Shown: positions 28,691 through 47,075 of the stretch, in pieces | Layout: every line of letters starts with the position of its first letter | Position numbering within the stretch: position 1 is the first letter of the stretch | Assembly: GCA_913055685.1 (NCBI GenBank) | Contig: CAJXKC010000001.1 | Span: 1,395,734-1,459,733 of the forward strand | Length of the DNA stretch: 64,000 bases | DNA from: an uncultured Flavobacteriales bacterium | GTDB lineage: Bacteria > Bacteroidota > Bacteroidia > Flavobacteriales > Schleiferiaceae | Direction: 5' to 3' | Notes under the pieces: generated by a model | The model's input: only the letters and a program-made list of their open reading frames with translations | What the model was told of the DNA's origin: nothing | Databases searched by the model: none | Made by a program: the position numbers and the translations under genes

Positions 28691-29113
28691 ATGAAAGGTT
28701 TTGCTCTATTTCTTTTAATCATCACTCTGTCCTTTAGTGCATCGGCACAGGTACAGACCGACGAAAATGGCTTTCAGACCTTTGAAATGAAAGATGGGGA
28801 TACGACCTATCTAATGAAGCAGTATTTCTTGATTTTGTTAAAAAGTGGTCCCGAAAGGAGTCAGTCTCAAGAAGAGGCTATGGCTATCCAAAAAGGGCAT
28901 TTAGCCAATATTGATTCGTTGGCCGCGCTCGGGAAATTAGATATCGCCGGTCCGATGGGGGATAATACCGAATTAAGAGGTATCCTAGTTTTGAGAGTTC
29001 CTAACCTCGAGGAAGCGAAGGCTTGTATTGAGGCTGATCCTGCGGTTAAAGCAAAAAGACTGACTTACGAAATCCATCCATGGTGGGCAGCTAGGGGAAG
29101 TCGTTTGCGTTAA
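28691..29113 (+). CDS. YciI family protein with signal peptide
   Basis: GHLANIDSLAALGKLDIAGP, EEAKACIEADPAVKA. Confidence 0.85.
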   Translation: MKGFALFLLIITLSFSASAQVQTDENGFQTFEMKDGDTTYLMKQYFLILLKSGPERSQSQEEAMAIQKGHLANIDSLAALGKLDIAGPMGDNTELRGILVLRVPNLEEAKACIEADPAVKAKRLTYEIHPWWAARGSRLR

Positions 29114-29670
29114 TTCTTATAACGCCCTCCTCTAAAAAAGCGCTTCTGCCAATAGCTATTGCTTAAAGCACTTACCATTACCCCGCGACTGGAACTGGTA
29201 TGCACAAATTTTAGGTCTCCCAAATAGATTCCTACGTGATCGATGCGACGCCCTTTAACTTTAAAGAACACTAAGTCGCCATACTTTAATTCACTCAATT
29301 CAATGGCTTCCATCTCCGCAAAAAGGTCCTCTGCCCGTCGGCCCTCGAATTCCCTTTCAAAAATTTCTCGGTAAGCAATAATTACAAAGCCGCTGCAATC
29401 GACTCCTTTTTTGCTCATCCCGCCCATTTTATGGGGCGTTCCGTACCAATCGTCTATAAAGTCATCTAGTGACTTAAGGGAAACTGTACTGCTTTCTTCC
29501 TTATCGACACTCGGCTTTTCGACCAAGCCTTCTTCCATTTCATTATTGAGTACTTCATGTTCATATCTAGGTTTGGGTTTAACCTTGCTATTGCTTTGTC
29601 TCGGAGGCTTTAAACTACCACAGGAACTCAGAAGCAAAACAGCTAAACCTAAAATGAAGCCCTTTTTCAT
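29110..29670 (-). CDS. NlpC/P60 (C40) peptidase lipoprotein
   Basis: Start moved to ATG 29670; lipobox LLSSC; WYGTPHKMGG, GVDCSG, HVGIYLG, FVHTSSSRG. Confidence 0.93.
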   Translation of the reverse strand: MKKGFILGLAVLLLSSCGSLKPPRQSNSKVKPKPRYEHEVLNNEMEEGLVEKPSVDKEESSTVSLKSLDDFIDDWYGTPHKMGGMSKKGVDCSGFVIIAYREIFEREFEGRRAEDLFAEMEAIELSELKYGDLVFFKVKGRRIDHVGIYLGDLKFVHTSSSRGVMVSALSNSYWQKRFFRGGRYKN

Positions 29671-29695
29671 AGCACAAAGATGATGGATTTCCCCC

Positions 29696-29728
29696 AAAAA
29701 AATAAAGGCCGCAAAAAGCGACCTTTAT
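29696..29728 (-). terminator. Intrinsic terminator after the M1 peptidase gene
   Basis: Minus strand ATAAAGGTCGC-TTTTT-GCGGCCTTTAT then T-run. Confidence 0.8.
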
Positions 29729-41171: not shown

Positions 41172-41228
41172 AGCTTCTTTGAGTTTAAAATTGCAGAGGG
41201 GAGAGGCTAATTGCTTACCGAGAAACAC

Positions 41229-41279
41229 TGGTTTAGCATTTTTTAGGGTGGTTGCAATCAGCCAAATTTTTCCACTCAG
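41229..41279 (-). promoter_or_regulatory. SAM-II class riboswitch (Bacteroidota long-loop-like variant) upstream of metK
   Basis: Minus strand: P1 GAGUGG/CCACCC (one mismatch), loop with UUUGGC and UUGCAA, then AAAUGCUAAA able to close the pseudoknot with UUUGGC; directly behind a promoter and upstream of metK. Confidence 0.8.
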
Positions 41280-41283
41280 GCGG

Positions 41284-41371: not shown

Positions 41372-42286
41372 ATGCAAAGAATCTTAGTCTCTTTTATTGT
41401 TTTGACCCTATTAAGTTCTTGTGTGAGCTACCGGCCAGTAGCTCCATTAAGCCAAGAGCATTTAAGTAGTCCGCCACATCCAGTAAATCCAGAGCTTTTT
41501 GACTTGGGAGGCTCATTACCTAATCGAACGATTGTGACTATAAAGCAGGAACAAATTACCAGCACCGGAAATCTAAAAAAGGCCCTGACCAAACGCTTAC
41601 GAAACCGATCTTTAGACGGAGCAATAATCACCTATCGCGATTATGCGACCCATGAAGCGGGGCGGGACCTTGGAAATGGTGAGGTACAATATTATACAGA
41701 ACACAATCACTTCGCCGAGTATTATCCATTTATCTACTTAGATGAAATTGCTAGCCGAGGAATTCTTGACTCCATCGTGCTGGAAGTTTCGGATCCAAAT
41801 GGGGATGACTATCAGGTGTATTTCTTATTGGATTGGCAAGAACAATTACGGTATATGCCCGCAGCGTTAAAACCGCAGGATTTTAGAGCTCTGGCGGTTC
41901 AGCCCTGGTTTTTCCTTCGCCAAAGATCAGGTTGGTACACCGCTTATTCCAGCAATGTTTATTTCAGTCAAAGGCGCTACGGCAGTGGTCCAGCGGCCCT
42001 TAAATATACTCCCTCAATAAACTATTATAATGTGTTTTATCTAAATGTACCCGGACCCAATTACAAGCTCTGGGTTTCTTTAGGCAAGGCAGATAGATAC
42101 CATATTGACTCACTTCAATATGAAGGGGAGCGCATAAAGGTGCTTCGGGACGACTTTCTAGGGATTGTCCGTAGTGAGACTTTTAGGATGCCCGATGGGA
42201 GACAATATCACTTTCGATACTTTTATAAAAGGCCGGAGCATGTTCCCAAAGATTGGATAATTGATCCGAAGAGTTTGCAACATTAA
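41372..42286 (+). CDS. Hypothetical lipoprotein
   Basis: Lipobox LLSSC; 304-aa ORF; no family recognised. Confidence 0.7.
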   Translation: MQRILVSFIVLTLLSSCVSYRPVAPLSQEHLSSPPHPVNPELFDLGGSLPNRTIVTIKQEQITSTGNLKKALTKRLRNRSLDGAIITYRDYATHEAGRDLGNGEVQYYTEHNHFAEYYPFIYLDEIASRGILDSIVLEVSDPNGDDYQVYFLLDWQEQLRYMPAALKPQDFRALAVQPWFFLRQRSGWYTAYSSNVYFSQRRYGSGPAALKYTPSINYYNVFYLNVPGPNYKLWVSLGKADRYHIDSLQYEGERIKVLRDDFLGIVRSETFRMPDGRQYHFRYFYKRPEHVPKDWIIDPKSLQH

Positions 42287-42305
42287 GGCTTGAGGATTAC
42301 ATTTG
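42274..42305 (+). promoter_or_regulatory. Promoter for metH-metF
   Basis: TTTG (42274-42277), 20-nt spacer, TACATTTG (42298-42305). Confidence 0.8.
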
Positions 42306-42310
42306 CTCTC

Positions 42311-42414
42311 ATACTTATCCAGAAAGACGGAGGGAATGGGCCCGATGATGTCTTAGCAACCCCTTAGGGCGGGTGCTACTTCCCACCTCGTTTTCATACG
42401 AGGATAGATGAGAG
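42311..42414 (+). promoter_or_regulatory. SAM-I (S-box) riboswitch
   Basis: CUUAUC...GAUGAG P1, AGAAAGACGGAGGGA, GGCCCGAUGA kink-turn region, GCAACC...GGUGC P3, P4 CCUCG/CGAGG; upstream of metH. Confidence 0.95.
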
Positions 42415-42476
42415 GCGTTTCGCAAGAACAATTCCAATTCAATCTGGCTTTCTCGGTAAGTTGTAGTAAAGAAACT

Positions 42477-43484
42477 ATGACGAAAGAAGCTATTTTCAAG
42501 ATTTTAGATGAGCGGATATTGGTGTTGGACGGAGCAATGGGCACCATGATTCAGCGCCACAAGCTAGGAGAAGCCGAGTATCGGGGTCAGCGCTTCGCTG
42601 ATTGGCCCAGCGATTTAAAAGGCAACAATGACCTATTAAGTCTTAGTCAGCCGCAAATAATAAAAGACATACACCGCGCTTATTTGGAAGCTGGGGCTGA
42701 TATTATTGAGACCAACACTTTTAATAGTACCCGTATTTCCATGGCCGATTACAATATGGAAGATTTGGTACCTGAAATTAACCGGGAGTCGGCTCGTTTG
42801 GCGCGCGAAGCGGCCGATGAGTATACGGCTAAGAACCCTGGGAAACCTCGCTTAGTTGCGGGCTCCATGGGTCCTACTAATAAAACCGCTAGTCTTAGTC
42901 CGGATGTAAACAACCCCGGCTTTCGAGCCATAGATTTTGATACCCTAGCCGCTAACTACCGCGAGCAGGCGGAAGCATTAATTGAAGGTGGGGTAGATAT
43001 TTTATTGGTGGAAACGGTTTTTGATACGCTAAACGCCAAGGCTGCCTTATTTGCTTTAGAAGAACTTTTTGATGATTTAGGTAAGGACTTTCCTATTATG
43101 GTTTCGGGAACAATTACCGATGCCTCGGGACGCACCCTATCGGGTCAAACGGCCGAAGCCTTTTTAACCAGCCTAAGTCATGTGCCGCTAATGTCCATTG
43201 GCTTAAACTGTGCCTTGGGAGCGGATCAGTTAAGGCCTTATGTTAATGTGTTAAACCGAAAGGCACCCTTTGCTGTCTCGGCCCATCCTAATGCGGGTTT
43301 ACCAAATGCTTTTGGGGAATACGATCAGGGGCCAGATGAAATGGGCGCCTTAATCCGCGAGTATTTAGAGCAACAATTGGTAAATGTGATAGGTGGTTGT
43401 TGTGGTACCACACCCGAACATATTCGAGTAATGGCAGATTTGGCACAGGAGTTTGAACCTCGAAAAATTACGGCATTAGTATGA
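42477..43484 (+). CDS. metH: B12-dependent methionine synthase, N-terminal homocysteine-binding module (split MetH)
   Basis: Start moved to ATG 42477; [42 protein letters not shown]. Confidence 0.95.
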
Positions 43485-46120
43485 ACCTCTCCGGATTAGA
43501 GCCTTTAGCGATTTCGCCAGCCTCCAATTTTGTGAATGTGGGGGAGCGAACCAATGTAACCGGTTCGCGAAAGTTTTTGCGGCTAATTAAAGAAGATAAA
43601 TACGATGAAGCCTTGGAAGTGGCCCGTGATCAAGTTGAAGGAGGCGCCCAGATTTTAGATGTCAATATGGATGAAGGCATGCTGGAGGGTAAGGCAGCCA
43701 TGGTCAAATTCTTACATCTTATTGCTGCAGAACCCGATATCGCCCGCATCCCAATAATGATTGACTCCTCGAAGTGGGAAATAATTGAAGCAGGATTAAA
43801 ATGCGTGCAGGGCAAGTCGGTAGTTAACTCCATTAGCCTTAAAGGCGGAGAAGCGGAGTTTTTGCGTCAAGCAAAATTAGTACGGCGCTATGGGGCAGCC
43901 GTAATTGTAATGGCCTTTGATGAAAAAGGCCAGGCCGATACCTATGAACGACGCATTGAAATCTGTGAACGTTCTTATAAGCTTTTAAGGGAAAAGATCA
44001 ACTTTCCCGCCGAAGACATCATTTTCGATCCAAATATCTTTCCGGTGGCAACCGGTATAGAGGAGCATCGCAGAAATGCCTTAGACTTCTTTAAGGCTAC
44101 CCAATGGATTAAGGAGAATCTTCCCCAGGCCAAGGTAAGTGGTGGGGTGAGCAATGTATCCTTTAGCTTCCGCGGCAATCAATTGGTACGCGAAGCCATG
44201 CATGCCGCTTTCCTATATCATGGTATTCAACACGGAATGGATATGGGAATTGTCAATCCAACCATGCTTGAGGTGTATGAGGAAATCCCTAAAGACCTCT
44301 TGGAAAGGGTTGAGGATGTACTATTAGACCGTCGTGATGATGCCACCGAGCGCCTGCTAGATTTTGCCGAAACGGTAAAAGGCGAAGCCCGCAGCAAGGA
44401 AAAGGATTTAAGCTGGCGAGAAGCACCAGTGGAAAAGCGTATTGAGCATGCCTTAGTAAAAGGAATTGTCGATTTCATCGAAGAAGATGTAGAAGAGGCT
44501 CGGCCAAATTTCGAAAAAGTATTAGGCCTTATCGAAGGGCCTTTGATGGACGGCATGAATGTGGTCGGCGATCTTTTTGGTTCAGGGAAAATGTTTTTAC
44601 CCCAAGTGGTAAAGTCAGCTCGAGTTATGAAGAAGGCCGTAGCTTATTTGGAGCCTTATCTCGAGGCGGAAAAGGCCGCCAGTAGTGATGTTTCTAAAAA
44701 GGGTAAAATTTTGCTAGCCACCGTTAAAGGCGATGTCCATGATATTGGGAAGAATATAGTAGGAGTGGTTTTGGCCTGCAATAATTTCGACATTGTGGAC
44801 CTTGGCGTGATGGTTCCTTTACAAGAGATCATCGAAACCGCTAAACGAGAGCAAGTAGATGTTATAGGGCTTAGCGGTTTAATTACGCCTTCTTTAGACG
44901 AGATGATAGAAGTGGCTAAGGAAATGGAGCGTCAGCAATTGGATATCCCCTTAATGATTGGCGGAGCCACCACTTCTAGGGCGCATACGGCGGTTAAGAT
45001 TTACCCCGAGTATTCCAATATTGTGGTGCATGTCAATGATGCCAGTCGATCGGTTCCTATAGCGCAGACCTTAGCCCAGCCAAAAGCCCGCCCAGAGTTT
45101 AAATCCAAGATTAAGCAGGAGTATGAGAAGCTACGAGATGGCTATTTAAATCGGGCGAAAGCCAAAGAATTAGTAAGTCTAGCTGAGGCGAGGAGCAATG
45201 CAGCCACTTTAGATTTCGACCATATAGTGGAGCCTCGAGTTAAAGGCTTGCAGACCGCTTTAGAATTTGATTTAGCAGTTTTAAGAAACTATATCGATTG
45301 GACCCCCTTCTTTCAGACCTGGCAATTGCATGGTAAATACCCACGAATTCTTGAGGATAAAGTGGTAGGTGAGGAAGCCACCAAGCTTTTTGATGATGCT
45401 CAAAAAATGCTAGACCAAATTGTGGCTGAAAAATGGATTGAAGCCAAAGGTCTTTTTGGAATATGGGAAGCAGAACGTTTGGGCCGGGACGATATTCAAC
45501 TCTATGAAAATGGAAAGGAGAAAGCCATCTTCCATACCCTAAGACAACAAACGAAAAAGGCTGCAAAAGCTCCCAATTTAGCTTTATCAGATTTTGTGTC
45601 GCCCGAAGGAAAAGATCATGTCGGATGCTTTGCCGTTTGTGCAGGCCTGGGAATAGAGAAGAAACTAGTTGAGTTCGAACAACAGCACGACGATTACAGT
45701 AGTATTCTACTCAAGGCCTTAGCCGATCGCTTAGCGGAAGCCGCTGCGGAATACCTACATGAGCAGGTGCGAAAGGATTATTGGGGCTATGCTCAAGATG
45801 AAGCACTCCTTAACGAAGAATTAATTAAAGAACAATACCAGGGCATTCGCCCGGCGCCCGGTTATCCCGCATGTCCGGACCATTTAGAGAAGACCACCAT
45901 TTTTGAATTATTGCAAGCTGAATCTATCGGGATGAGCTTAACAGAGAGCCTAGCCATGAATCCGGCCGCTAGTGTTTCGGGCTATTATTTTGCGCATCCA
46001 GATTCCAAGTATTTCGGTTTGGGGAAAATAAATAAAGACCAGGTGGTCGACTATGCCCAAAGAAGAGGAATTAGTATTGAAGAAGCGGAGAAATGGCTCC
46101 GACCCAATTTGAATTATTAG
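43481..46120 (+). CDS. metH: B12-dependent methionine synthase, pterin-binding, cobalamin-binding and activation modules
   Basis: [54 protein letters not shown]. Confidence 0.97.
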
Positions 46121-46121
46121 C

Positions 46122-47075
46122 ATGAAAATTACCGAACATATTGCTCAGTCGAAAGACACTTTATTTTCATTTGAGATTTTACCGCCTTTAAAAGGTCAGC
46201 GGATCGAGGATATTTACGAGGTTATCGATCCCTTAATGGAATTTGACCCCCCTTTTATAAATGTTACTTACCATCGAGAAGAAGTAGTTTACAAAAGGTT
46301 GCCTAATGGTTTATTGGAGCAGAAAACGGTGCGCAAGCGACCGGGAACGGTTGGCATCTGTGCCGCTTTACAGTACCGCTATAAAGTAGATACTGTGCCG
46401 CATATGCTTTGTGGTGGTTTTAGTAAAGAGGATACCGAGAATGCTTTAATCGACCTCGACTTTTTGGGGGTCGAGAATGTACTTGCCCTAAGGGGAGATA
46501 GTATGAAAAATGAGCGCTTCTTCGCACCTGAGGCCGATGGTCACCAATATGCTAAAGATCTGGTGGGACAAATAAAGGACATGAATGAAGGTCGCTTTTT
46601 AGACGATGAATTGCAGAATACTAATAAAACTAACTTTTGCATAGGGGTTGCCGCTTATCCCGAAAAGCATTTCGAAGCACCCAGTTTAAATCAGGATATT
46701 ATGCATCTTAAGCAAAAGGTAGATGCGGGAGCTGATTTTATCATCACCCAGTTGTTTTTCGATAATCAGAAGTACTTCGACTTTGTTAATCGTTGCCGCA
46801 AAGCGGGAATCACGGTGCCCATAATTCCCGGTTTAAAACCGCTGTCAACTAAGCAGCACTTAAGTTTTCTCCCTCATTTCTTTAAAGTGGACTTGCCCGA
46901 TGATTTGGTAAAGGCGGTGGTAGATTGTAAGGATAATGCCGCTGCTAGGCAGGTTGGAATCGAATGGGGTATTAAACAGGCCCAAGAGCTTAAAGCGGCG
47001 GGAGTGCCGGCAATCCATTTCTATTCTATGGGTCGGCCCGATAATATTGCCGCTATTGCCCGCGCTACCTTTTAA
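46122..47075 (+). CDS. metF: 5,10-methylenetetrahydrofolate reductase
   Basis: SFEILPP, NVLALRGD, GVAAYPEKH, GADFIITQLFFD, IHFYSM. Confidence 0.96.
   Translation: MKITEHIAQSKDTLFSFEILPPLKGQRIEDIYEVIDPLMEFDPPFINVTYHREEVVYKRLPNGLLEQKTVRKRPGTVGICAALQYRYKVDTVPHMLCGGFSKEDTENALIDLDFLGVENVLALRGDSMKNERFFAPEADGHQYAKDLVGQIKDMNEGRFLDDELQNTNKTNFCIGVAAYPEKHFEAPSLNQDIMHLKQKVDAGADFIITQLFFDNQKYFDFVNRCRKAGITVPIIPGLKPLSTKQHLSFLPHFFKVDLPDDLVKAVVDCKDNAAARQVGIEWGIKQAQELKAAGVPAIHFYSMGRPDNIAAIARATF

Follow-up and report, generated by a model that had tools for sequence, protein, structure and literature searches.

The leader of metH described here belongs to the same RF00162 family as the S-box leaders of Bacillus subtilis (yitJ, metI, metK and samT), and it shares with them the methionine gene class and, by our predictions, the SAM-off logic. 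In the B. subtilis leaders a terminator and an antiterminator compete and it is the 3′ strand of P1 that switches, whereas for the metH leader we predict that the 5′ strand switches, with the start codon as output. A terminator-less SAM-I riboswitch has been described in Xanthomonas campestris (SAM-I Xcc; Tang et al. 2020, PMC7270179). This lack of a terminator is shared with the metH leader, as is the repression of translation, which is established for Xcc and predicted here. In SAM-I Xcc, a SAM-bound platform hairpin with an ‘anti-AUG’ sequestor holds the AUG (PMC7270179). However, Xcc also sequesters a Shine–Dalgarno (SD) site and has an anti-SD that binds tRNA-fMet, while the flavobacterial leader has no SD. 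Furthermore, the flavobacterial sequestor, unlike that of Xcc, would pair with a hairpin around the AUG and with early codons, and its antisequestor would be the 5′ half of the aptamer itself.

The general sequestor/antisequestor platforms (Barrick and Breaker 2007, PMC2258182), e.g. those of Escherichia coli thiM and lysC, have the same OFF logic, in which the ligand breaks an antisequestor and a sequestor hairpin then forms over the initiation region. The platform proposed here differs from these in that the start codon and the first codons would be hidden, and in that the antisequestor helix would enclose the entire aptamer, starting at the 5′ end. Within the phylum, the TPP riboswitches of Bacteroides thetaiotaomicron control translation without a change in mRNA level, with an aptamer less than 5 nt from the start codon; aptamers more than 40 nt away were proposed to act on transcription, and the molecular details of riboswitch control in Bacteroidota were left open (Costliow et al. 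2019, bioRxiv 10.1101/867226). In the metH leader, whose aptamer belongs to another class, 62 nt separate the aptamer from the ATG and 15 nt the switching strand. In Bacteroidetes it is mRNA structure, and not an SD, that tunes initiation (PMC6847099). Our full-text literature search returned no description of such a platform for SAM-I in Bacteroidota, which is weak evidence, as the search covered few subscription journals.

The metH leader and its SAM-I aptamer

The locus lies in a 64,000-nucleotide stretch of DNA from an uncultured member of the Flavobacteriales, which we call the window and in which all positions are counted from the first letter. The SAM-I (S-box) aptamer, with helices P1–P4, occupies positions 42312–42414 on the + strand. 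It matches the full length of the RF00162 model (1–108 of 108) with 78.5 bits (E 9e-17), against a gathering score of 44.4, and a whole-genome Rfam search found the same site again as the sole SAM-I in the genome. The consensus alignment contains all four helices and the core blocks GAGGGA, GCAACC, GGUGCUA and AGAU. This core is unvarying in 60 related leaders, and a SAM-I aptamer is present at 59 of 80 related metH loci. P1 is weak, consisting of six pairs (42314–19 with 42407–12). Its 3′ strand, GAUGAGAG (42407–42414, + strand, placed by the Rfam alignment pairs), finds no other partner in the sequence 3′ of it.

The aptamer ends 62 nt upstream of the start of a split metH, in the sense orientation. 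The ATG (42477–42479, + strand) has an A at −3 (42474) and no SD, and the N-terminus that it implies aligns with those of relatives. The first part of metH (42477–43484, + strand) encodes a homocysteine S-methyltransferase domain protein of 335 aa (PF02574, E 1.7e-100, the match starting at residue 15). It overlaps by 4 nt with the second part (43481–46120, + strand), which encodes 879 aa with pterin-binding, B12-binding and activation domains (PF00809, PF02607, PF02310, PF02965). The gene for methylenetetrahydrofolate reductase, metF (46122–47075, + strand; PF02219, E 1.2e-69), comes next and is presumed to be the final gene of a metH–metH–metF operon. A longer N-terminus for metH could in principle begin at an ATG at 42408, in the 3′ strand of P1, which is in frame and followed by an open frame. 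Since this extension is conserved only in one further leader of the same genus (L002), and in none of the other relatives, we take it to be a coincidence.

Bacteroidota promoters have the consensus TTTG/TAnnTTTG. By reading the sequence against this consensus we identified a candidate −33 element, TTTG (42274–42277, + strand), which lies 20 nt upstream of a candidate −7 box, TACATTTG (TAnnTTTG; 42298–42305, + strand). A similar TTG or TTTG is found in the same place in three relatives (L002, L003 and L004), and the TTTG of the −7 box is unchanged across the six closest leaders (alignment A1). In leaders of the window's clade the G of the −7 box is 4–7 nt upstream of the first nucleotide of the aptamer. 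The transcript probably starts near 42311, the first base of P1.

The same genome contains a second riboswitch for the same ligand, a long-loop SAM-II (RF01726, by Rfam match) before metK at 41223–41281 on the − strand. Like the metH leader, the metK leader has neither an SD nor a terminator, but its fold is a different one, a pseudoknot. The two leaders share a 12-mer, UUUCUCGGUAAG, and an 11-mer, AAAGAAGCUAU. We considered the 12-mer as a genome-wide repeat or motif and rejected this, as there are 5 exact copies against 2 of the reversed control, and with one mismatch the counts equal those of the control in all 16 genomes of the genus.

A distal strand complementary to the aptamer 5′ strand

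The initial annotation of this DNA had claimed that the P1 5′ strand and J1/2 are complementary at 13 of 14 positions, with one G-U pair and one C-C mismatch, to a strand that ends 15 nt before the ATG. A direct reading of the sequence confirms this. The strand ACUUAUCCAGAAAG at 42313–42326 (in the DNA, ACTTATCCAGAAAG) pairs with CUUUCUCGGUAAGU at 42448–42461 (CTTTCTCGGTAAGT) in antiparallel orientation through 12 Watson–Crick pairs and one G-U pair (U42318-G42456), interrupted by one C-C mismatch (C42320/C42454), and 15 nt separate the end of the distal strand (42461) from the ATG.

In the minimum free energy (MFE) fold the core of this pairing appears as two helices, 42315–19 with 42455–59 and 42321–26 with 42448–53. 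The unconstrained fold extends them further, pairing CGGA 42328–31 with UCUG 42443–46, GAAU 42334–37 with AUUC 42437–40, and GGG 42338–40 with UCC 42433–35. The putative antisequestor thus comprises the P1 5′ strand, J1/2 and the 5′ side of P2 (42313–42340, + strand), as indicated by the MFE helices, duplex z-scores and covariation. The putative sequestor is a pyrimidine-rich distal strand (42433–42461, + strand) made up of the core 42448–42461, UCUG 42443–46 and the linker pairs; it is predicted by folding and is conserved and covarying in alignments A4 and A5.

The duplex between the 5′ strand and the leader is predicted at −17.7 kcal/mol (RNAduplex, z about −4.2), with none of 200 dinucleotide shuffles as good, and the mean z over 22 short leaders is −4.0. 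The 3′ strand of P1 shows no complementarity to the leader (z −0.28 in the window, mean z +0.20 over the 22 leaders), and we therefore rejected a classical antiterminator or antisequestor formed from that strand. Without ligand, the folding calculations for the window leader prefer the ON ensemble, in which the long helix forms, by 5.6–6.6 kcal/mol, a preference that on these calculations is within reach of the energy of ligand binding.

Covariation across metH leaders had been proposed as a check on this pairing, and the distal strand proves to be both conserved and covarying. It is found, with compensatory changes at the family and order level, in nearly all short Flavobacteriales metH leaders and in another lineage of the phylum. 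In A4 and A5, two alignments that were not fitted to the structure, 82% and 76%, respectively, of the ON helix cells are paired, against 33–58% when the partner is slid. For covariation the helix scores 0.223 and 0.201, slid partners reach 0.101 at most, and 0 of 500 shuffles score as high, although such shuffle counts overstate significance because the relatives are not independent. The compensatory swaps include exchanges of GC with CG and of AU with GC, and the column of the window's own C-C mismatch contains CG (11), GC (3) and AU (2) in relatives. In short leaders the distance from the distal strand to the start codon is constant at about 12–25 nt. In long leaders (>135 nt, 22 loci), which contain inserted elements, the distal strand is often undetectable above shuffles, and these were excluded from the energy analysis. 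On the evidence of these sequences, the complementary strand is not due to chance.

The start region and its predicted occlusion

The initial annotation had further suggested that UGUAGU and ACUAUG can fold over the start codon, and this too is borne out. A start-codon hairpin, GUUGUAGU/ACUAUGAC with the loop AAAGAA (42460–42481, + strand), pairs 42460–67 with 42474–81 at a predicted −5.3 kcal/mol, and its first two bases (42460–61) are common to the ON helix. The hairpin recurs in the form GU(C/U)(A/G)UAG with CUAUGAC in seven related leaders, where one-sided changes keep Watson–Crick or G-U pairs, and the inner hairpin is kept in 8 members of the family.

When the aptamer is locked, the freed sequestor is predicted to form an outer helix between U42445–U42453 and AGAAGCUA in codons 3–6 (42485–42492, + strand). 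The platform alone folds at −11.9 kcal/mol, and the helix with 42485–92 is present in the MFE and in all of the 25 lowest suboptimal folds. The weak partner that had been suggested for the freed strand, AGAAA at 42470–74, occurs in none of them. The platform hairpin of the window leader has a z of −1.76, with 11 of 200 shuffles as good. However, the duplex between the distal strand and the start region in the window alone is not significant (RNAduplex, z −0.6, p 0.24), and this window taken alone hints only weakly at the pairing. The case for a duplex between the sequestor and the start therefore rests on the relatives and on the state-dependent energy of opening the start region.

This energy differs between the two states. 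In the window leader, 7.8 kcal/mol are needed to open the region from −12 to +12 around the AUG when the aptamer is locked, and 3.4–4.8 kcal/mol in the ON or free state, i.e. about 3–4 kcal/mol extra when locked, against about 0.3 for shuffled leaders; 1 of 8 shuffled leaders exceeded the real difference between states. Among Flavobacteriales leaders, 36 of 37 show the extra cost (mean 3.4 kcal/mol). Its mean is 3.76 over the 22 short leaders (0.25 when shuffled), and within the same family 21 of 23 leaders show it, with a mean of 3.36 (0.29 when shuffled). These nearest-neighbour calculations leave out aptamer tertiary structure, co-transcriptional folding and proteins.

Among the relatives, the target of the sequestor varies. 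In four leaders (L060, L048, L063 and L076) CCUGAUAAC pairs with GUUAUCAGG immediately 5′ of the AUG (z −2.6 to −3.8), in six others UGACAU pairs with AUGUCA, and in L011 the sequence ACUUAU-AUG-AAAG mimics the P1 strand (z −2.9). The same design occurs with a GUG start in four leaders of another lineage of the phylum. Thus both register and target of the OFF helix depend on the lineage, lying before the AUG, on it, or in codons 2–6. As this makes column covariation of the OFF helix unfeasible, we used a contingency test instead, in which the variant of the distal strand is associated with the kind of target (Fisher p 0.004).

The reading that we consider probable, from folding and comparison, is a SAM-I OFF switch on translation initiation, in which a swap among three strands occludes a start without an SD. 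In setting it out we infer that SAM binds, that the switch operates, that 30S binding is affected and where the transcript starts. When SAM is scarce, the weak P1 would lose its 5′ strand, and this strand, J1/2 and the 5′ side of P2 would pair with the distal strand and linker (42433–42461). The resulting interrupted helix of 20-odd base pairs would loop out the rest of the aptamer and tie up the distal strand. The start region would be left with a marginal hairpin of 5–8 bp, and 30S subunits could bind there, at an initiation site that is rich in A and has no SD. When SAM is abundant, P1 and P2 would be locked and the distal strand set free, so that its CUUUCU could pair with codons 3–6 (42485–92). 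This outer helix would stack on the hairpin that contains the AUG (42477–79), giving a bipartite hairpin of 16 bp at about −12 kcal/mol in which the start is occluded. The two pairings would be mutually exclusive, as 42448–53 and 42460–61 are used in both the ON helix and the OFF hairpin, and 11 of the 14 OFF-paired bases of the distal strand are ON-paired too. That said, the inner start-codon hairpin is predicted in both states, and the switch would therefore rest on a difference of 3–4 kcal/mol rather than on all-or-none exposure.

Alternative outputs and what the switch may mean

The initial annotation had left the choice between occlusion of an SD-less initiation region and control through Rho. 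The comparative and folding results favour occlusion, and the sequence gives no support to Rho. It had also reported that no terminator and no SD follow, which holds, and the lack of an intrinsic terminator is a point in favour of Rho. A terminator scan found no intrinsic terminator on the + strand between 42415 and the ATG, its nearest match on that strand being inside the aptamer (42371–42388), and there is no GGAG, GAGG or AGGA within 20 nt upstream of the ATG. The scan is able to see terminators, since it detected them in eight leaders elsewhere in the phylum. There is a small chance that Rho-dependent termination is the primary output, with SAM freeing a C-rich unstructured stretch of the leader or early ORF and the swap hiding or exposing a Rho site. 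Precedents exist in E. coli, where the ribB, mgtA, thiM and lysC riboswitches act together with Rho, and an mRNA whose translation is blocked is in general open to attack by Rho, both as cited in PMC12121620. The linker had been described as C-rich and G-poor, and a 16-nt stretch of it, CAAUUCCAAUUCAAUC, is indeed without G; this stretch would be paired in the ON state and unpaired in the OFF state. However, the whole 62-nt leader has 12 C and 12 G (C/G 1.0), and over its first 100 nt the ORF is rich in G (C/G 0.57); beyond the G-free patch, no extended rut-like region was found in the leader and these 100 nt. The pyrimidine tract that is set free has little length, and folding predicts that the OFF hairpin takes it up again. 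Pairing with the purine-rich 5′ half of the aptamer explains the composition of the linker without a Rho site, and the freed strand of relatives targets the AUG or the bases just upstream, which Rho loading would not need. Rho may have a secondary, translation-coupled effect. A dual switch, in which the OFF hairpin (42445–42492) and U-runs act as a weak intrinsic terminator in the first codons and SAM lowers both transcription and translation, seems to us decidedly unlikely. Terminators that include the ribosome-binding site are a known dual design (PMC2258182), UUUUC (42493–97) and then UUUU (42502–05) lie directly 3′ of this hairpin, which forms only in the locked state, and the hairpins of both same-genus leaders (L002 and L121) are likewise followed by AUUUU. 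Yet the stem beside the U-run is A/U-rich and interrupted (U-A, G-U, G-C, C-G, U-A, U-A, bulge) within an element of 48 nt that the terminator scan did not call, the U-run corresponds to the Ile-Phe/Ile-Leu codon pair of the protein, and in most relatives that have this switch the sequestor hairpin is not followed by a U-run.

Control of mRNA decay by the swap, e.g. by hiding or exposing an A/U-rich nuclease entry site or the 5′ end, is very unlikely. The transcript is predicted to begin with the first base of the swapped strand, and the lysC riboswitch of E. coli exposes an RNase E site (as cited in PMC12121620), but here the 5′ end is paired in both states, we identified no specific cleavage motif, and what the sequestor targets in a conserved manner is the region of the start codon. 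We give almost no credence to a complementarity without switching function, arising by chance or as a by-product of a degenerate terminator. It is true that in classical S-box leaders one expects the terminator 3′ strand to look like that of P1, and hence to complement the P1 5′ strand; however, there is no 5′ strand of a terminator and no antiterminator, the P1 3′ strand has a z of +0.2 against the leader, and the distal strand is kept, with its compensatory changes, at a constant spacing from the start codon in short leaders. A more far-reaching proposal is that the leader represents a phylum-wide, undescribed class of SD-less translation-control platforms whose start region mimics the aptamer 5′ strand, and that SAM-I (metH) and SAM-II (metK) share one sequestor-target cassette, through exchange of modules between riboswitch classes or a common trans-acting factor co-regulating metK and metH. 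We think this unlikely. The leader is most likely a translational OFF switch of an ordinary kind, adapted to bacteria that manage without SD sites.

As Bacteroidota make no use of Shine–Dalgarno pairing, the textbook model in which a riboswitch hides the SD is inapplicable to them. The leader and its roughly 60 relatives offer a concrete model that can be mutated, in which a pyrimidine-rich strand would pair by turns with the aptamer's 5′ half and with the region of the start codon. What the model predicts can be addressed directly in Flavobacterium johnsoniae by probing, toeprinting and reporter assays. The example also suggests that the distance from aptamer to start (62 nt) is a poor guide to mechanism, and that what matters is where the switching strand lies (15 nt). 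Annotations of these genomes should treat metH–metF as repressed by SAM, probably in translation.

The metH leader and its alternative helix

The SAM-I aptamer upstream of metH is an ordinary and complete one (42312-42414, + strand; 78.5 bits against an Rfam threshold of 44.4, full model), and a search of the whole 2.96-Mb genome found no other SAM-I. Three plus-strand genes follow: a homocysteine S-methyltransferase protein of 335 aa (42477-43484), an 879-aa protein with the MetH pterin-binding, B12-binding and activation domains (43481-46120), and MetF (46122-47075). Here metH is carried by two genes (42477-46120) with a 4-nt overlap, the homocysteine-binding domain being separate. As a query, the 335-aa protein matches as a separate unit throughout the Flavobacteriales. 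The source organism belongs to the Flavobacteriales. Among named records, 'Flavobacteriales bacterium ih4' is closest in the metH protein (83% identity), and further close relatives carry the labels Schleiferiaceae, Cryomorphaceae and Owenweeksia.

A TTTG at 42274-77 and the box TACATTTG at 42298-42305 (+ strand), the latter kept in the six closest leaders, plausibly form a Bacteroidota-type promoter. The last G of the box lies 4-7 nt before the aptamer, therefore the RNA probably starts at about 42311, the first base of P1. An ATG within the P1 3′ strand is in frame with metH and, with no stop in between, could extend the protein by 23 codons (42408-42476, + strand). The same in-frame ATG occurs at position 1435 of L002, a metH locus from the same genus. 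In the remaining relatives the extension is either missing or closed, so it is probably a coincidence.

The initial annotation proposed that the 5′ strand of P1 and J1/2 (42313-42326) pair with a distal strand at 42448-42461. The two 14-mers indeed form 12 Watson-Crick pairs and one G-U pair around one C-C mismatch, and 15 nt separate the distal strand from the ATG (42477-79). At -17.7 kcal/mol the pairing is far above chance (z about -4.2 against shuffled sequences, with 0/200 shuffles equalling it). The unconstrained minimum free energy fold of 42305-42500 contains this ON helix, lengthened via the linker to some 22 pairs; these extend into the P2 5′ side, so that the helix and the aptamer fold exclude each other. 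The remaining features described for the leader also hold: a terminator scan finds no U-tract hairpin from the aptamer to the ATG, upstream of the ATG there is no purine block resembling an SD, and a hairpin of GUUGUAGU and ACUAUGAC can cover the start codon (-5.3 kcal/mol).

Conservation and covariation of the distal strand

Three sets of related leaders were compared: 80 Flavobacteriales metH loci, 59 of which have an upstream SAM-I aptamer (model R1), 29 loci from the window's own family and 30 loci drawn from the whole phylum. Among leaders no longer than ~130 nt, nearly all have a strand complementary to the P1 5′ side, J1/2 and the start of P2, and in short leaders the distance from its end to the start codon is 12-28 nt. 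MAFFT alignments at the order (A4) and family (A5) levels, fitted to no structure, show that the ON helix is conserved with compensatory swaps. With the helix as given, 82% of cells are paired in A4 and 76% in A5, against 36-58% and 33-48% when the partner is slid by 1-3 columns. The covariation scores are 0.223 and 0.201, compared with highest slid scores of 0.101 and 0.093; no shuffle out of 500 reaches the observed score in either alignment, a count that overstates independence as the aligned leaders are related, but the slid controls keep this relatedness and are equally clear. Swaps on both sides of the helix include GC to CG, UA to AU and AU to GC. Where the window has its C-C mismatch, the pair in relatives is CG (11), GC (3) or AU (2).

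We also considered that the distal strand might be the remnant of a terminator. This is excluded, because the P1 3′ side, the classical switching strand, has no partner within the leader (mean z +0.20).

Most of the 22 leaders longer than 135 nt are without a detectable distal strand near the start. In some of these long leaders a Flavo-1 RNA (RF01705) lies between SAM-I and metH, on the strand opposite metH (L043, 1358-1433, 72.5 bits; L019, 1347-1426, 54.6 bits), which suggests that Flavo-1 copies can insert into metH leaders, like a mobile or repeated element. A further 21 of the 80 loci lack a SAM-I in the 1.5 kb before metH, therefore metH control must differ there; these are mainly from Chryseobacterium (e.g. 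L016, L018 and L021), Bergeyella and a Bacteroidales genome, and L064 is among them.

Predicted state-dependent access to the start codon

When the aptamer is taken as locked, with P1 formed and the distal strand freed, the platform alone (42440-42500) is predicted to fold into a bipartite hairpin of -11.9 kcal/mol, a form found in 25/25 of the best suboptimal folds. Its outer helix pairs UGGCUU.CU (42445-53) with AG.AAGCUA (42485-92, codons 3-6), and its inner part pairs 42460-67 with 42474-81, which contains the AUG and A-3. With the ON helix enforced, the start region is left with 5-8 weak pairs (-3.1 to -5.3 kcal/mol). In an RNA from 42311, opening the region from -12 to +12 around the AUG costs 7.8 kcal/mol when locked versus 3.4-3.7 in the ON state. 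Without ligand the ON ensemble of this RNA lies 5.6 kcal/mol below the P1-enforced one, a gap plausibly within reach of SAM binding together with tertiary contacts. Because both states keep the inner hairpin, control is predicted to be graded rather than absolute. Judged from the window alone, the OFF pairing does not stand out statistically (duplex z -0.6, hairpin z -1.76), and one of eight shuffled leaders has a larger state difference than the real one.

The folding models suggest that relatives follow the same logic, often more plainly. Among Flavobacteriales leaders of up to 135 nt, start opening is costlier when locked in 36 of 37 (mean difference 3.4 kcal/mol). For 22 short leaders the mean difference is 3.76 kcal/mol against a shuffled-leader null of 0.25, and in the same family 21 of 23 leaders agree (mean 3.36, null 0.29), with coordinates in this last set off by one base and the outcome unaffected. 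In one Flavobacteriaceae group (L060, L048, L063, L076 and L081; z -2.6 to -3.8 in four), CCUGAUAAC pairs with either GUUAUCACG of P1 or a copy, (G)UUAUCAGG, directly before the AUG. In another group the partner of UGAUGACAU is AUGUCA, made up of the start codon and a serine codon. The AUG of L011 lies within a near-copy of the P1 strand (ACUUAU-AUG-AAAG versus ACUUAUCCAGAAAG; z -2.9), and in L003 UUUCUGGC pairs with GCCAGAGA at +1 to +10. The distal strand variant predicts the kind of target: a UAUCA box precedes the AUG in 5/6 leaders with UGAUAAC and in 1/12 with UGAUGAC (Fisher p 0.004), 11/12 of the latter having an AUGUC start. Within the window's family, eight leaders share a hairpin, GU(C/U)(A/G)UAG with CUAUGAC, in which every change keeps Watson-Crick or G-U pairing and whose first bases belong to the ON helix. 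The same arrangement is found in another lineage of the phylum (L102, L106, L109, L110), where UUCACUCU/AGAGUGAA holds a GUG start codon.

The first proposal for this leader, occlusion of an SD-less start, is supported in outline by the conserved ON helix and the state-dependent opening cost, but not in detail: AGAAA at 42470-74, the suggested partner of the freed strand, sits unused in the hairpin loop, and codons 3-6 are the predicted partner instead. The other proposal, Rho-dependent termination, has no sequence support. The leader does contain a 16-nt G-free patch; however, C and G are equal in number across the leader as a whole, the early ORF is G-rich, and pairing with the purine-rich aptamer strand explains the pyrimidine richness. 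Rho may still act secondarily on untranslated mRNA. A weak intrinsic terminator inside the first codons is conceivable, as UUUUC (42493-97) lies directly 3′ of the OFF hairpin, but the stem beside this U-run is A/U-rich and interrupted, the run itself encodes Ile-Phe, and most relatives are without it. Occlusion of the start region is the likeliest reading of the metH leader.

In another class of the phylum (L089-L092) a strong classical terminator follows 26-67 nt past the aptamer, so both modes coexist in the phylum. Beyond the terminator, three or four of these leaders also have an anti-P1 strand whose pairing is very strong (-34 to -35 kcal/mol), in L092 39 nt before the called start, and may be of a two-stage design.

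The metK neighbour and known switches

A SAM-II long-loop riboswitch (RF01726, 61 bits; 41223-41281, - strand) precedes metK (41171-39879, - strand), 1.2 kb from the metH SAM-I and divergently transcribed. Both SAM classes are thus adjacent in one genome, and L048 and L012 likewise have both; Barrick and Breaker found no species with both in 2007 (PMC2258182). Between the two riboswitch leaders lies a 304-aa ORF without a Pfam match (41372-42286, + strand), ending 12 nt before the metH -7 box. The two leader RNAs share a 12-mer, UUUCUCGGUAAG, and an 11-mer, AAAGAAGCUAU, in the same order, 33 nt apart in metK (41225-41214 and 41180-41170, - strand) and 22 nt apart in metH (42449-42460 and 42483-42493, + strand). 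In metH the 12-mer is the sequestor core and the 11-mer its target; in metK the 11-mer ends with the AU of the start codon. L002 has both words in its metK leader only. The 12-mer was not borne out as a genome-wide motif, and the sharing may reflect gene conversion, convergence or a common factor. A 16-mer, TTTCTCGGTAAGCAAT, at 29364-29379 (+ strand), inside a minus-strand ORF (29110-29697), is identical to metK leader RNA 41225-41210, a match unexpected by chance for 64 kb.

Our models place the metH leader with the sequestor/antisequestor platforms, a known kind of switch that Barrick and Breaker outlined broadly (PMC2258182), as a variant conserved among relatives. Of the characterised switches, SAM-I Xcc comes nearest: its anti-SD and anti-AUG elements repress translation, and the paper on it notes that terminators were used by every SAM-I switch characterised earlier (PMC7270179). 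What matters for initiation in Bacteroidota is a start region free of structure, rather than an SD (PMC6847099), and for Bacteroides TPP riboswitches translational control has been demonstrated in a study that did not settle the molecular details (bioRxiv 10.1101/867226). The metH leader differs from known cases in that what would be hidden is the start codon and first codons, with no SD, and the aptamer 5′ half would be the antisequestor; in flavobacterial leaders, moreover, the start region often mimics the aptamer 5′ strand. A full-text literature search of incomplete coverage found no description of such a platform. The metH leader offers a testable model of how riboswitches could control translation that does not depend on an SD.
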